Source: an uncultured Bacilli bacterium | GTDB taxonomy: Bacteria > Bacillota_I > Bacilli_A > RF39 > UBA660 | NCBI GenBank assembly: GCA_947625715.1 | Contig: CANQPR010000001.1 | Span: 1 to 33,781, forward strand | Length of the DNA stretch: 33,781 nt | Direction of reading: 5' to 3' | Part shown: positions 2 to 6,346 of the stretch, piece by piece | How positions within the stretch are numbered: the first letter of the stretch is position 1 | How the letters are laid out: each line of letters opens with the position of its first letter | The notes under the pieces: model-generated | The model's database searches: none | What the model saw: only the letters and a program-made list of their open reading frames with translations | Told to the model about the DNA's origin: nothing | Program-made: the position numbers and the translations under genes

Positions 2-751
2 CAAAGTCATATGATGAAGAATACCGAATGGGGAGCAGTAGCATATTTACAACATAGTATATATGGAAGTAGACAAAAAGTAAGAATCAATAATAATCAA
101 AGTTATCTAACAGGCTATGCTTCTATATATGAACCAACAATTGGATATTCTGGAACAAATGAAAGTTGTACTTCAAATAAAGATGCTTGTAATGAATATT
201 GTACATCAGCTAAAGGTGCAAATGGAACATGTAATACAGAGTATTTTGATACATCAAGTGTAAAAGCAAGTACAACAAATAATTACACAGGAATATTTGA
301 TATGGCAGGAGGAGCCTGGGAATACATGATGTCAGGAATGGATGATGGAAAAGGACAGTTATCATCAGGAAATAATAATGCGGCTAATTCAGGGTTTAAT
401 GGAAATTTAACAGGTGAATCAGGAACAATAACAGGTGGTATAGCTTTACCAACCGAACCAAAATGGTATGATAAATATGCTTATGGAACAAGTAATATTG
501 AATATAAAAGAGGTATCTTAGGTGATGCTACAAAAGAAATGGGACCATTTCAAACAATTAGATATATTAGTAACAATAGAAATGTTAGTAGTTGGTATAG
601 TAATGCCGGTTGGGTTGTCTACCATGTAGTTCCGTGGGTCCTTCGTGGTGCCACTCAAGCGGACGGTCTTGAGGCAGGAGTCTTTTCCTTCGCTTACTAT
701 GACGGCTTTGCACACAGTAATGACAGCTTCCGTCTTGTTTTAGCTTTCTAG
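2..751 (+). CDS. C-terminal part (5' end lies outside the window) of a secreted/surface protein with a divergent FGE-sulfatase / C-type-lectin-like fold
   Basis: The frame is open from the window edge to TAG at 749-751. GIFDMAGGAWEY and PWVLRG...SFRLVL resemble the GxYDMxGNVWEW and RVxRGG...GFRxV signatures of FGE-sulfatase/CLec domains. Recognised from motifs only. Confidence 0.6.
   Translation, partial: QSHMMKNTEWGAVAYLQHSIYGSRQKVRINNNQSYLTGYASIYEPTIGYSGTNESCTSNKDACNEYCTSAKGANGTCNTEYFDTSSVKASTTNNYTGIFDMAGGAWEYMMSGMDDGKGQLSSGNNNAANSGFNGNLTGESGTITGGIALPTEPKWYDKYAYGTSNIEYKRGILGDATKEMGPFQTIRYISNNRNVSSWYSNAGWVVYHVVPWVLRGATQADGLEAGVFSFAYYDGFAHSNDSFRLVLAF
600..751 (+). other. Adenine-depleted, GC-rich terminal patch of the CDS; candidate DGR variable region
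   Basis: Hand count for 601-750 gives 24 A (16%) and 75 G+C (50%). The preceding 451-600 has 65 A (43%) and 43 G+C (29%). Codons are mostly NNY/NNG (gtc tac cat ccg gtc ctt cgt ggt gcc act gcg gac ggc). Confidence 0.4.
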
Positions 752-2157: not shown

Positions 2158-2934
2158 TTATTTTTTATTTTGATGATACTCAGTTCTTTTTCTTTTTAAA
2201 TATTCTAAAGCTTCATCAGGATTATCCATAAAATATGCAAAATCTTTAGTTTGATTTGAAAATGTTAATTTGATAAGAGATTCATTAATAATTTGTCCAA
2301 CTCTTGATTTAGTTATATTAAAATATTTAGCAATGTCCGTATAAGTAACACCCCTATAAGCTAGCAAAACTATTTCGCTATTTCTTTTTGATAAAACACT
2401 TTCTAATAAAATTTTTACTTGTTCTTGTAATAAATTCATTATTGCGGTTTGAGAAACATCATCAACTGCAATATCAGGATAAATTCCATCATTATGAAAT
2501 TCATCTAAAGATAACATGTCATTTAAATAAATTTCAAATAATTTGATATCTTCTTCTTTATATTTAGTTAAATTTAAAGTATTATTTTCTTTTTCTTTTT
2601 TATAACTTGCCATCATATTTAAAAATTCAACTGGTATTTTTATAGTTCTTGCGGTATTTTTAACAGCATTATTAATCGTGCCATCAATACATTTCCAAGC
2701 ATAAGAAATAAATTTTCCATTTTCTGGATTATAAGATTTAATAGCCTTAATTAAAGCTATTTTTCCATATTGAATTAAATCTTCCAATTCTAAATTATAA
2801 TTAGCATATCTTTTGGCAATTTTTATTACTAAAGGATTATATTTTTCTATTAAACTTTCCATAGCTTTTAAATTACCATTTACATATTCTTGTAATAGTT
2901 CATCAAAATTAGAATCATTAAGTAAATTTTTCAT
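2158..2934 (-). CDS. Sigma-70 family RNA polymerase sigma factor (group 3-like alternative sigma)
   Basis: Region 2 DLIQYGKIALIKAIKSYNPENGKFISYAWKCI, region 3 RTIKIPVEF, and a region 4 HTH YTDIAKYFNITKSRVGQIINESLIKL. ATG at 2934 follows AGAAGG by 5 nt. The ORF track extends to a TTG at 2955. Confidence 0.85.
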   Translation of the reverse strand: MKNLLNDSNFDELLQEYVNGNLKAMESLIEKYNPLVIKIAKRYANYNLELEDLIQYGKIALIKAIKSYNPENGKFISYAWKCIDGTINNAVKNTARTIKIPVEFLNMMASYKKEKENNTLNLTKYKEEDIKLFEIYLNDMLSLDEFHNDGIYPDIAVDDVSQTAIMNLLQEQVKILLESVLSKRNSEIVLLAYRGVTYTDIAKYFNITKSRVGQIINESLIKLTFSNQTKDFAYFMDNPDEALEYLKRKRTEYHQNKK

Positions 2935-2965
2935 GTTAGCCTTCTTTCTTTTCAAACAAAATTTT

Positions 2966-2993
2966 ATTCTAACATAACGAAAATGTATGTCAA
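2966..2993 (-). promoter_or_regulatory. Candidate promoter for the sigma factor gene
   Basis: On the minus strand: TTGACA (2993-2988), a 16-nt spacer, then TGtTAGAAT, an extended -10 whose hexamer is at 2971-2966. Confidence 0.5.
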
Positions 2994-3013: not shown

Positions 3014-3044
3014 TTGACGGGGGGGGGGTATTATATAATATAAT
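3014..3044 (+). promoter_or_regulatory. Candidate promoter whose -35/-10 spacer is a G10 homopolymer
   Basis: TTGACG (3014-3019) followed by overlapping TATAAT hexamers at 3034-3039 and 3039-3044. Spacers are 14 or 19 nt at the current tract length, neither optimal. Confidence 0.45.
3019..3028. repeat. G10 homopolymeric tract
   Basis: Ten consecutive G read directly at 3019-3028 in a roughly 30% GC genome. Confidence 0.95.
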
Positions 3045-3073
3045 AAAAGAAGATATGGAGGTCTTCTTTTATA

Positions 3074-4459
3074 ATGAAATTAAGTCAATTTAAAGAGAAA
3101 AAGAATAGTAAAAAAATAATAATTGTTGCTGTAGCTATCATTTTTTTAATAGGTGGAATGATTTTAGAAAAAACATTTGCTAATTTTAAGATGCAAAAAT
3201 CATTCAAAGTGATGGAGGGTAATTTTATCTATGAAGGAAGTGGGGATATAATATTTGCCTTTTATAAAGATAATAATCAAAAAGTTACAAATATTCCTAC
3301 AATAGAAGAAGGATATGTATATGAAAGAAGTGAATGTAGCAATAACGCATCCATAGAATGGGATAGTAAAAAGCAATCACCTATAGTAAATAATTTAAAA
3401 ATAAGTGGAACAAAATGTGATTTATATTTTAAAAAAATAAATTCAAGTAGCACAACTGTATCAAGTGACTATAATGCTTTAGCTGATTTAATTGATACTA
3501 AAAGAGGTCAATTAGCGTATGATTTAACACCTGACCATAACTTAAGATTTGTAGGAAAAAATCCTGATAACTATGTAAAATTTAACAATGAAACTTGGCG
3601 AATTATTGGAGTCATGAATAACATCGAAGATGAAAAAGGGGTAATTGGAAGTCACCTAAAAATAATCAGAGATAGTATAGGGAATTATAGTTGGGATTCA
3701 TCAGAAAGTAGTGTAAATGGAGGTTATGGAGTAAATGAGTGGAGTGAAGCTGACATACAAAAAGTATTAAATGAGAATTATTATAAAAAAGAAGCAGGAG
3801 GGACATGTTACAATGGTTATAAAAATACAGTAGCGTCATGTCCAAAATGGGAAAATATTGGTTTAAATGATGAAGCAAGAGGAATGGTAAGTAAAATAAA
3901 ATGGAATACTGGTGCATTTTATAGTGAAGATATATATGCGAATTCTTCAACTTATAATTCTGTTTTAGTATATCAAAGTGAGAGAAGTGATTATGTAGGT
4001 CAAAGTGAATGTACTTCTCCAACTGATTGTAATGATAAAGTAAAAAGGAATACGACTTGGACAGGTTATGTAGGATTACCTTATGTAAGTGATATAACAT
4101 TAGCAACTTCTGGTTCTCTTTATACGTCACCTAATGCTGTTTCTGCATGTTTCGGTTTGCCGTTTAGAGATTGGGCTCGTTCGCTTAGCCTTTCTTGGGG
4201 CACATTAAGTTGTTATAGTAATGATTGGTTGTTAAATAGCAGTGATACAAGCAATTGGACGATAACACCTAGTAAAGATTATGACTATGAAGGACATCCA
4301 TATTCTTTAGGTGTTATATTTTATTATGCCGAAAGTGATATTATAATACTTTCAGATGTAACATATAGTAGTGGAATTAGGCCTGCTGTGTATTTAAATT
4401 CTAATGTTAAAGTATCTGGTGAGGGAACAAAGTCTAGTCCATATATATTATCAGTTTAA
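3074..4459 (+). CDS. Secreted or membrane-anchored surface protein of unknown family
   Basis: N-terminal hydrophobic anchor KIIIVAVAIIFLIGGMILE, a Cys/Trp-rich ectodomain, and a C-terminal GIRPAVYLNSNVKVSGEGTKSSPYILS motif of the kind seen in Firmicutes surface proteins. The GGAGG lies in a hairpin loop upstream. Confidence 0.8.
   Translation: MKLSQFKEKKNSKKIIIVAVAIIFLIGGMILEKTFANFKMQKSFKVMEGNFIYEGSGDIIFAFYKDNNQKVTNIPTIEEGYVYERSECSNNASIEWDSKKQSPIVNNLKISGTKCDLYFKKINSSSTTVSSDYNALADLIDTKRGQLAYDLTPDHNLRFVGKNPDNYVKFNNETWRIIGVMNNIEDEKGVIGSHLKIIRDSIGNYSWDSSESSVNGGYGVNEWSEADIQKVLNENYYKKEAGGTCYNGYKNTVASCPKWENIGLNDEARGMVSKIKWNTGAFYSEDIYANSSTYNSVLVYQSERSDYVGQSECTSPTDCNDKVKRNTTWTGYVGLPYVSDITLATSGSLYTSPNAVSACFGLPFRDWARSLSLSWGTLSCYSNDWLLNSSDTSNWTITPSKDYDYEGHPYSLGVIFYYAESDIIILSDVTYSSGIRPAVYLNSNVKVSGEGTKSSPYILSV
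4128..4205 (+). other. Second adenine-depleted, GC-rich patch inside a surface protein gene
   Basis: Hand count for 4131-4200 gives 7 A (10%) and 34 G+C (49%). Codons rare for this genome occur here (ccg, tcg, cgt, ggc). Encodes SPNAVSACFGLPFRDWARSLSLSWGT. Confidence 0.3.
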
Positions 4460-5076
4460 TAATGATAGTGCTTTTTTTGCTTTAATTTATTAATAAAAAC
4501 TACAGAATTTCTTTGACCTTTAGATTTTTTTTAAGAAAAATTATCAATTATAAAAGTATTTTTCTATGAATTTAAAAAATGATTACAAAAAGTAAATTTT
4601 TCAAAAACGATGCTTTTCATTTCATAAGAATATTTCCAGTTATAGTGCTTTATGTTGTTGTAATGCAAAATCTGTGTGTCCTTTTTTATCACTTACCTAT
4701 ATTCCTTGTCCTGGTTTACTTATTTTAAGGAAAAATGGGAAAGTCACTGCAAGCAAATCCTACGGTATTTTTGCGGATTTTAACAATATTACTTTTCTTA
4801 GTAAATCGTTATATCAAGCCTCTTAAAATTAAACCTTTTCCTATTTTTTTTTTAATGTAACAGCAGGTATTGCCATTTTTATATTATATCTATCATCTTG
4901 CTTGTTTTTTAAATATAAGAAATAAAAACAAAAGAAAAAAAGTGAACACACCAAAAATAGGGGAAATTGTTCTCTTTTTTTGTTTACATTGTTAAAAATT
5001 AAAATTTTTGACCCTTATAAAATATGGGTTTTAATAAACTTATCACTTAAAGTGCAAAATACATGTTAAAAAAAGG

Positions 5077-5105
5077 TTGCATTTCATACAATTTTATTGT
5101 AGAAT
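5077..5105 (+). promoter_or_regulatory. Candidate promoter of the S10 operon
   Basis: TTGCAT (5077-5082), a 17-nt spacer, then TAGAAT (5100-5105). This leaves a ~130-nt leader before rpsJ. Confidence 0.55.
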
Positions 5106-5237
5106 TGTCTCTGTATGACGGCAAGGATGTGCGAAGTTGCTGATACACTTGGCGATATTGTTAAACAAAAGCTGAGATTCAGGTAATTTGTACGGAGCAA
5201 GTATATACAAGATATATGCGAAAGGAGGGCACTTTAA

Positions 5238-5569: not shown

Positions 5570-6346
5570 ATGAAAAAAGGAATCTTAGGACGCAAAGTTG
5601 GAATGACACAAGTATTTACTAAAGATGGTAAATTAATTCCTGTAACTGTTGTATCAGTTTTACCTAATACCGTAATGCAAGTTAAAACAGTTGAAAAAGA
5701 TGGTTATAGTGCTATTCAACTTGGCGTAGTAGACAAAAAAGAAAAAAATGCTAGTCGTGCAAGTGTTGGACACGCCAAAAAAGCTAACACCACTCCTAAG
5801 CGCTTCTTAAAAGAAATAAGAAATGTTACTGAAACTTATTCAGTTGGAGATACGCTTAAGGCTGATATATTTAAAGTAGGAGAAATAGTTGATGTAACAG
5901 GAACTAGCAAAGGAAAAGGATTTGCTGGTACTATTAAAAGACATGGTCAAAGTCGTGGACCTATGGCTCATGGATCTCATTATCATCGTGGCCCAGGTTC
6001 ATTAGGAACTATGTTACCAAAAAGAGTATTAAAAGGGAAAAACTTACCTGGACATATGGGAGTTGAAACTGTAACTATTCAAAATCTTGAAATTATTGAA
6101 GTAAATACAGCTGATAACTACCTATTAGTAAGCGGTAATATTCCAGGTGCTAAAGATAGCTTAGTATTAATTAAAAGTGCAATAAAAAATCAAAGAAAAG
6201 AAAACCCTAAAGAAATATTAAGTTATGAACAAGAAACTGTTATTGATGAACAAGTAGATATAACAGGAGAACAACAAGATAAAAAAGAAGAACAAATAAA
6301 AGAAGAAGAACCTACACCAGCATCTAATGATGCCGAACAACAATAG
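5570..6346 (+). CDS. rplC: 50S ribosomal protein L3 with an acidic C-terminal extension of about 50 aa
   Basis: [13 protein letters not shown] and [12 protein letters not shown] motifs, plus synteny. Confidence 0.96.

Follow-up and report, generated by a model that had tools for sequence, protein, structure and literature searches.

A poly-G tract in the promoter spacer of a secreted-protein gene family as a candidate phase-variation switch in an uncultured gut Bacilli bacterium

The DNA analysed here (hereafter the window) is the whole stretch from position 1 to position 33,781 of contig CANQPR010000001.1 (assembly GCA_947625715.1), from an uncultured Bacilli bacterium; it is 33.8 kb long and has a GC content of 27.9%. 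Its most unusual feature is a run of exactly ten G (G10) on the forward strand, 45 nucleotides (nt) upstream of the ATG of a gene encoding a 461-amino-acid protein that is predicted to be secreted or membrane-anchored. A preliminary description of the window had proposed this tract as a candidate phase-variation switch lying in the promoter spacer of the secreted-protein gene, and the core of that proposal is supported by the comparisons reported below. The tract is part of a block, termed the cassette, that consists in order of TTGAC, poly-G, an A/T block in which a pair of -10-like hexamers is spaced 5 bp apart, a hairpin in the 5' untranslated region (5'UTR) and a conserved leader peptide. 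The features of the locus are as follows, with the public sequences used for comparison carrying L numbers:

3014..3019, forward strand: -35 element TTGACG; TTGAC is invariant in 10/10 cassettes, with unrelated 5' flanks, and is also reported by a promoter scan
3019..3028, forward strand: G10 tract, proposed slipped-strand switch; G9 in L001 and G10 in L002-L005, with G8-G10 or interrupted tracts in the paralogous cassettes
3029..3044, forward strand: A/T block in which -10-like hexamers overlap; a pair spaced 5 bp apart is kept in both cassette types
3043..3072, forward strand: 5'UTR hairpin, from a repeat search, RNAfold and RNAalifold
3074..4459, forward strand: gene of the 461-amino-acid family protein, with a leader shared among 27 members
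2158..2993, reverse strand: divergent sigma-70-family gene and its promoter, from sequence and promoter scan; given for context, outside the cassette

The first G of the tract (3019-3028) doubles as the last base of TTGACG, and TATTATATAATATAAT (3029-3044) follows directly on its 3' side; the region around the tract reads accgTTGACGGGGGGGGGGTATTATATAATATAATaaaag. Within the A/T block TATAAT occurs twice, at 3034-3039 and 3039-3044, with spacers of 14 and 19 nt counted from TTGACG. I obtained the same coordinates and the same spacers as the preliminary description, which had however overlooked a TAATAT (3036-3041) that the promoter scan places at a 16-nt spacer. The rarity of such a run in low-GC DNA, also remarked on there, is borne out: about 3e-4 runs of at least ten G or C are expected by chance in the window, and its five other G/C runs of at least 5 nt are each exactly 5 nt long, leaving G10 as the sole run above that length. 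Recognisable -35 and -10 hexamers flank a homopolymer of at least about 8 nt in the window, and this arrangement is seen in 10/10 cassettes, the promoter being assigned from sequence and conservation. The tract lies outside the reading frame, upstream of the start codon, and any effect of its length must therefore be transcriptional, rather than exerted through a frameshift.

The N-terminus of the 461-amino-acid product shows a K-rich n-region and a hydrophobic stretch of ∼17 residues, followed by TFA|NF. Its first ∼66 residues are nearly identical among 27 family members (MKL(S/N)Q(Y/F)KEKK...FKVMEGNFIYEGSGD), none of which has a cysteine in the leader that could form a lipobox. The family is very large, a homologue search having given more than 2,700 matches, and in longer relatives the same body is joined to a prepilin N-methyl domain. 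The 461-amino-acid protein matched no Pfam or NCBIfam family above threshold, and only DUF4179 weakly. An AlphaFold2 model, with a mean confidence (pLDDT) of 74 and a predicted N-terminal helix, gave no significant match in the PDB. In the family alignment the body is globular, Cys-rich and interspersed with indels, with no C-terminal tandem repeats found. A 39%-identical homologue from the human gut (P0076) has no poly-G upstream, indicating that the promoter cassette is lineage-restricted.

In this organism the cassette is found ahead of ten paralogous genes for surface proteins, at loci that are unrelated. Contigs were retrieved for six leader-sharing paralogues, and in these the cassette was found before every first gene of a unit. 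Each paralogue thus has its own conserved promoter-plus-leader block, with its own homopolymer or an interrupted version of it:

Window at 3014: TTGAC-G10 (G9 in L001)
L006 at 1177: TTGAC-G9
L008 at 9945, and L010: TTGAC-GGGAGGGGGG
L011 at 7072: TTGAC-G9 (G10 in L012 and L014)
L007 at 175: TTGACAC-G10
L007 at 1738: TTGACACGA-G9
L016 at 1120: TTGACAC-G9
L101 at 660: TTGACAC-G9
L101 at 2098: TTGACACGA-G8; the product has a DUF285 domain behind the same leader
L141: TTGACAC-GGGGGAGGAG

The upstream edge of conservation is exactly TTGAC, and the sequence 5' of it is unrelated between loci, which is strong evidence that TTGAC is the -35 element. Throughout ∼97.5 kb of non-redundant DNA of the organism, there are eight G/C runs of at least 8 nt, all of which lie inside cassettes and have their G on the sense strand; from the base composition of the window I put the number expected by chance at ∼0.04. 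Two types of cassette can be distinguished, namely TTGAC-Gn-TATTATATAATATAAT (type 1) and TTGACAC-Gn-TATTATTATAAAAT (type 2). In the alignment, type 2 shows a 2-nt shift before the tract relative to type 1, and a compensating 2 nt after it, so that at G10 the distances from TTGACN come out alike in both types, at 14 nt for one -10-like hexamer and at 19 nt for a second, better one (TATAAT or TAAAAT). These compensating indels argue that the distance between TTGAC and the A/T block is under selection.

The tracts range from G8 to G10, with four interrupted variants besides. Two cassettes without any long G run (GGGAGGGGGG in L008/L010 and GGGGGAGGAG in L141) keep a length of 10 nt, and two further ones have CGA ahead of a G8 or G9 run. 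Since the interrupted tracts keep their length, the G's are dispensable as sequence within the spacer. The persistence of pure G runs in most copies fits selection for mutability, or gene conversion. The DUF285-domain protein at L101 (2149-3408), under the same leader and the TTGACACGA-G8 cassette, indicates that the cassette serves more than one type of surface protein. Some family genes are paired (L011 7152-9829, L008 1-1830), with overlapping or closely spaced stop and start codons and a cassette only before the first; in such pairs two paralogues may be under a single tract. Directly upstream of one cassette (L008 9748-9931) lies a ∼200-bp element with 14-bp inverted repeats (GCTGCTGAAAAAGT and ACTTTTTCAGCAGC), and the interior of the same element is found, 97.5% identical and in the opposite orientation, upstream of another cassette (L007 1-163). 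This element could be an invertible segment or a miniature inverted-repeat transposable element.

The tract was also found in five other public contigs of the window locus (L001-L005), retrieved via the sigma protein, which stem from several samples and at least two assembly pipelines. The preliminary description had called for the tract to be compared between related strains, and the ENA contigs used for this comparison have a coverage of ∼3x. Two orthologous loci differ between G9 and G10 in these ∼3x assemblies, within flanks that are otherwise identical or near-identical. At the window locus the tract is G10 in L002-L005 and G9 in L001, and over 3222 aligned nt L001 shows no substitution relative to the window, G9 against G10 being the sole difference. 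At the second locus L011 has G9, and L012 and L014 have G10. The same alignments show no difference at any A/T run of 8-9 nt. The tract length is also incongruent with single-nucleotide polymorphisms (SNPs), as L002 is 9 SNPs away from the window yet has G10, while L001 is SNP-identical yet has G9. These differences may reflect true length variation at the same locus, but the coverage of the assemblies leaves room for sequencing error. A contig end lies within 10 nt of the tract in 5/21 cassette instances (the ends of L002, L004 and L005, and the starts of L009 and L015, contigs that come from different samples), which suggests that poly-G tracts fragment assemblies of this organism. Two other differences were noted among the contigs of the second locus: a single-base indel at L011 4104, relative to L012, splits ftsY and is probably a low-coverage assembly error, and a 17-nt indel downstream of ffh (L011 6535 compared to L014) sets L014 apart from L011 and L012.

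For comparison, the ordinary promoters of this organism are canonical. That of the sigma gene has a -35 element, 16 nt and a TGn-10, and I read the promoter of the S10 operon as TTGCAT-17-TGTAGAAT at ∼5078-5106. A scan of metagenome contigs for TTGAC-N(0-16)-TATTATATAATATAATAAA, with distinct cases tallied, turned out to be of use as an empirical control for spacing. The scan returned 39 sequences, none of them related and none with poly-G. Among these, a gap of 13 nt was found in 11 distinct cases, placing the upstream TATAAT at 17 nt, and a gap of 12 nt in three, placing it at 16 nt; a gap of 8 nt, which brings the downstream TATAAT to 17 nt, occurred in four. A gap of 10 nt was found in two distinct cases, and in neither could a ribosome-binding site and the start of a gene be recognised after it. 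The unrelated promoters that share this -10 block therefore have gaps of 12-13 nt (14 distinct) or 8 nt (4), and gaps of 9-11 nt are rare. This agrees with the earlier reckoning that G8 or G13 would give a 17-nt spacer, the arithmetic of which is right. G9-G10 would thus fall in the dip that separates two favourable registers, and TAATAT at 16 nt may act as a basal promoter.

The arms of the hairpin in the window lie at 3043-3053 and 3062-3072, and a repeat search shows that they can be extended to 3040-3053 and 3062-3075. The loop, TATGGAGG, contains the Shine-Dalgarno sequence GGAGG (3057-3061), and the 3' arm reaches the start codon; RNAfold gives a folding energy of -12.1 kcal/mol. A hairpin of 11-13 bp was obtained for eight of the nine cassettes folded (L141 was left out), with energies of -8.7 to -12.6 kcal/mol, and all eight share a purine-rich loop bearing the Shine-Dalgarno sequence and a 3' arm reaching the AUG (the corresponding coordinates are 1199-1233 in L006, and 197-227 in L007). 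The stems of type 1 and type 2 differ in sequence. RNAalifold on eight cassettes gave 11 pairs, of which five show compensatory changes and none is broken, and G-U pairs are present; the compensatory changes and G-U pairs point to a structure at the RNA level. The window itself matched no Rfam family and no tRNA. The final 2 nt of the downstream hexamer are also the first 2 nt of the 5' arm. Because of this overlap, the 5' arm of the hairpin would be missing from a transcript that starts from the downstream hexamer, and one from the upstream hexamer would begin at the hairpin base.

By ribosomal protein L3, the nearest genomes are bins labelled uncultured gut "Bacilli", "Tenericutes" or "Erysipelotrichaceae" (70-87% identity), including Candidatus Ventrenecus and Candidatus Onthocola, which I take to be RF39-type gut lineages. 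The family alignment, searched against GTDB species genomes, found no relatives with the conserved leader, indicating that the genus is not among the representatives. Seven G/C runs of at least 8 nt were found in 1.27 Mb of relatives, six of which sit at the 5' end of a gene whose product is secreted, pilin-like or membrane-anchored. Four of these lie within the stretch that encodes the leader, in genes of the same protein family, namely G10 in L021 (2657-2666), G8 in L048 (6669-6676), and G8 and G11 in two tandem genes of L052 (6779-6786 and 8247-8257). The fifth, in L085 (5217-5226), is in the promoter of a prepilin gene (MKRKQRGFTIVELL), which reads TTGACA-N8-G10-TATTAT with an 18-nt spacer, and the sixth, in L059 (3420-3427), is in a promoter-like TTGCAA-cc-G8-tatct-TATAAT upstream of a membrane-anchored protein. 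The seventh run (L074) is in frame inside a 459-amino-acid open reading frame (ORF). At L021, L048 and both genes of L052, the assembled consensus has the body in a different frame from the start codon and leader, which is the classic OFF state of what would be a translational poly-G switch. Read in this manner, the intragenic tracts of the relatives are independent evidence that the same family is subject to putative switching by poly-G slippage. Across the clade, poly-G slippage is thus predicted to strike repeatedly at the 5' ends of surface-protein genes, and the lineage of the window is the one with the apparent transcriptional version.

The ten conserved cassettes with tracts of their own, the difference between L001 and the window in the tract alone, and the intragenic poly-G of the relatives together support the core reading. 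I therefore consider it rather probable that the G10 tract is a slipped-strand promoter-spacer switch of the kind found at porA, tp0126 and vlp. The tract would act as the variable-length spacer of a sigma-70-type promoter cassette driving each family member, to which slipped-strand mispairing during replication would add or remove G's, presumably at a high rate in vivo. Each step of one G would alter the separation of the -35 and -10 elements by 1 bp and rotate them by ∼34 degrees relative to each other, and the strength of the promoter of that single gene would shift heritably but reversibly. At G10 and G9 the consensus TATAAT or TAAAAT lies 19 and 18 nt from TTGACN, where low or intermediate activity is expected; G8 would provide the optimal 17 nt, and G12-13 would bring the upstream hexamer into register, the ON lengths and the true -10 being those that this model implies. 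With a tract of its own before each paralogue, cells would show different combinations of family members, which are likely surface-exposed, as a form of bet-hedging or antigenic variation.

Several observations weigh against this reading. The G9/G10 differences may be sequencing errors at the low coverage of the assemblies, another 1-nt indel is present between L011 and L012 outside any long homopolymer, and the contig breaks may equally reflect poor sequencing through poly-G. No sampled tract gives a 17-nt spacer to a consensus hexamer, and the TAATAT at 16 nt could make G10 the active state. The interrupted, locked 10-nt tracts precede intact genes, which mildly favours 10 nt as an expression-competent length, and tempers the simple view that G10 is OFF. 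Finally, the geometry of the hairpin is awkward for the simplest spacer model, and its position is the main reason why the sequence does not settle which hexamer is the -10 and which lengths are ON. A rival reading is that the spacer is fixed, with an essentially invariant poly-G kept by gene conversion among paralogues or for DNA shape or rigidity, no switching, and G9/G10 as errors. The ∼3x coverage and the L011/L012 indel are compatible with this, as are the tight clustering of lengths at 9-10 and the 10 nt retained by interrupted variants. I nevertheless regard a fixed spacer as unlikely: G9-10 runs are known to be intrinsically slippage-prone in the bacteria studied, including in T. pallidum data (PMC7864442), the A/T runs of similar length are invariant in the same alignments, and the paralogues span G8 to G10. 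In addition, the interrupted copies show that the G's are dispensable as sequence, and the frame-breaking G8-G11 tracts of the relatives, in the same family, make sense only as switches. Alternatively, the tract could be an artefact of sequencing or assembly, arising from two-colour poly-G calls or a chimeric join, as might be suspected from the several contigs that end at or near it. This was rejected, its probability being negligible, as the tract lies within the contig, between identical flanks, in independent assemblies from several samples and at least two pipelines, and recurs nowhere but in the homologous cassette, with position and strand the same at all ten loci. A G-quadruplex was also rejected from inspection of the sequence, a single G run being unable to supply four G-tracts.

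It is similarly unlikely, in my estimation, that the length of the tract acts by some route other than the spacing between TTGAC and TATAAT. This could take several forms. The real -10 could be the TATTAT abutting the tract (3029-3034), with the last G's serving as an extended -10-like contact and TTGAC as the site of a regulator; a GGGTAT-type -10 could be read by an alternative sigma factor, for instance that encoded next door; or the length could select between two starts, with or without the 5'UTR hairpin. In the L085 promoter a TATTAT does directly follow G10, at 18 nt from TTGACA, and a start ∼7 nt past the TATTAT of the window would coincide with the base of the extended hairpin, at 3040. 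The covariation in the hairpin, including G-U pairs, also implies that an RNA with both arms must exist, and the window cassette does adjoin an orphan sigma gene. On the other hand, TTGAC matches the -35 core perfectly and conservation begins exactly with it in 10/10 cassettes, the compensating 2-nt indels hold its distance to the hexamers downstream where an abutting -10 would need none, the ordinary promoters have a canonical -35, 16-17 nt and TGn-10, and the sigma gene lies beside just one of the ten cassettes. That sigma-70-family gene (2934-2158, reverse strand) is divergent from the cassette gene, and its next best match among 5.8 billion proteins is 27% identical. Its promoter on the reverse strand, with TTGACA at 2993-2988, 16 nt and TGtTAGAAT ending at 2966, has 11/12 consensus matches plus the TG. 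The distance of 26-35 nt between the tract and the sigma -35 given in the preliminary description is correct, and it is this proximity that would favour the accompanying idea that tract length affects both genes, through an upstream element or an activator site. Such co-regulation is very improbable, and that part of the description is not upheld: by my estimate from the position of the -10, the tract is at ∼ -60 to -69 of the sigma promoter, beyond the usual range of UP-elements; this promoter is already near consensus; and the cassette stands as a unit at the nine other loci, beside which the sigma gene is absent.

A more elaborate version of the spacer switch would make the cassette a three-state device, in which G8 fires the downstream hexamer and G12-13 the upstream one, bracketing the resting length, and which adds two kinds of mRNA, insulation from read-through and a clade-wide use of poly-G. 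A start at the downstream hexamer, inside the 5' arm of the hairpin, would leave the ribosome-binding site and start codon free, and a start at the upstream one would put the hairpin at the 5' end of the mRNA, stabilising the message or occluding the start codon. The hairpin would also silence read-through from an upstream tandem paralogue, so that the gene would obey its own tract only. I consider this full scheme improbable as a whole; if true, it would mean, together with the intragenic tracts of the sister genera, that this clade of uncultured gut Bacilli generally varies its surface by poly-G slippage.

Other features of the window lie outside the cassette. A gene for an AAA_14/DUF4143 ATPase (858-2060) adjoins the sigma gene, and the ORF at the start of the window (2-751) is not a member of the family. 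Between the family gene and rpsJ, ∼780 nt (4460-5237) contain no ORF of at least 60 amino acids, no Rfam family and no tRNA. At its C-terminus the L3 protein (5570-6346) is extended by ∼40 residues, among which acidic residues and lysine abound, with partial alignment in the relatives.

Most of what is known of phase-variable surface families comes from pathogens in culture, among them Neisseria, Campylobacter, Treponema and Mycoplasma. The sequences described here point to a whole poly-G-switched surface family, of at least 27 leader-sharing members and ten cassettes, in an uncultured gut Bacilli lineage that has a small genome and of which only metagenome sequences are known. If this is true, commensals would also vary their surface stochastically, with consequences for immune and phage evasion and for colonisation, and the fragmentation of genome bins at cassette loci would be explained. 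The same family, apparently switched transcriptionally in one genus and by frameshift in its sister genera, would also show how contingency loci evolve. In the literature, no paper was found on homopolymer phase variation in RF39-type gut Bacilli or in gut genomes assembled from metagenomes. The switch proposed is of a known kind, and new for this lineage and for an uncharacterised protein family.

Poly-G tracts in promoters are documented for tpr genes and tp0126 in T. pallidum and for porA in N. meningitidis, and expression of porA and tp0126 hinges on a 17-nt spacer (PMC7864442). The window resembles these two in that a G homopolymer of ∼8-11 nt separates the -35 and -10 hexamers in the sigma-70 promoter of a surface-protein gene (PMC7864442). 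It differs from them in that the proteins are unrelated, the host is a low-GC gut bacterium of Gram-positive type and not a pathogen, and the tract sits in a cassette repeated before many paralogues, with two -10-like hexamers 5 bp apart. In the tpr genes of T. pallidum (tprE/G/J, tprF/I and tprL) the promoter poly-G spans 7-12 nt, G8 or shorter is permissive and longer tracts are silent, and most of them vary within isolates (PMC7864442). The likeness here is that of paralogous putative surface proteins, each with its own promoter poly-G of variable length. In tprL, unlike in the cassette, the tract overlaps the -10 region and the -35/-10 spacing is unchanged; moreover, the T. pallidum genome has a GC content of ∼53%, which makes G runs less exceptional there, and the proteins are unrelated.

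As in the Vlp system of M. hyorhinis, a multigene family is seen here in which a conserved 5' block, comprising promoter, spacer homopolymer and leader, is followed by a divergent body. The Vlp genes reportedly have a poly-A spacer and encode lipoproteins with a lipobox and C-terminal tandem repeats, and they are said to be often in tandem and to switch independently, producing combinatorial surface mosaics (Yogev et al. 1991; Citti & Wise 1995; both cited in PMC4198240). The family described here has poly-G instead, with neither a lipobox Cys nor tandem repeats, and its host, unlike that of Vlp, has cell-wall genes, with a penicillin-binding protein in a related genome (L097), and a sortase and a D-Ala-D-Ala carboxypeptidase in its own contigs. 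In C. jejuni, Haemophilus and Neisseria, the rare long G runs of low-GC genomes are concentrated in genes for surface structures, where they act as frameshift switches. This intragenic mode is that of the relatives L021, L048 and L052, whereas the tract in the window precedes the start codon. In its organisation the system is most like the tpr family and the Vlp system, while being a member of neither protein family.

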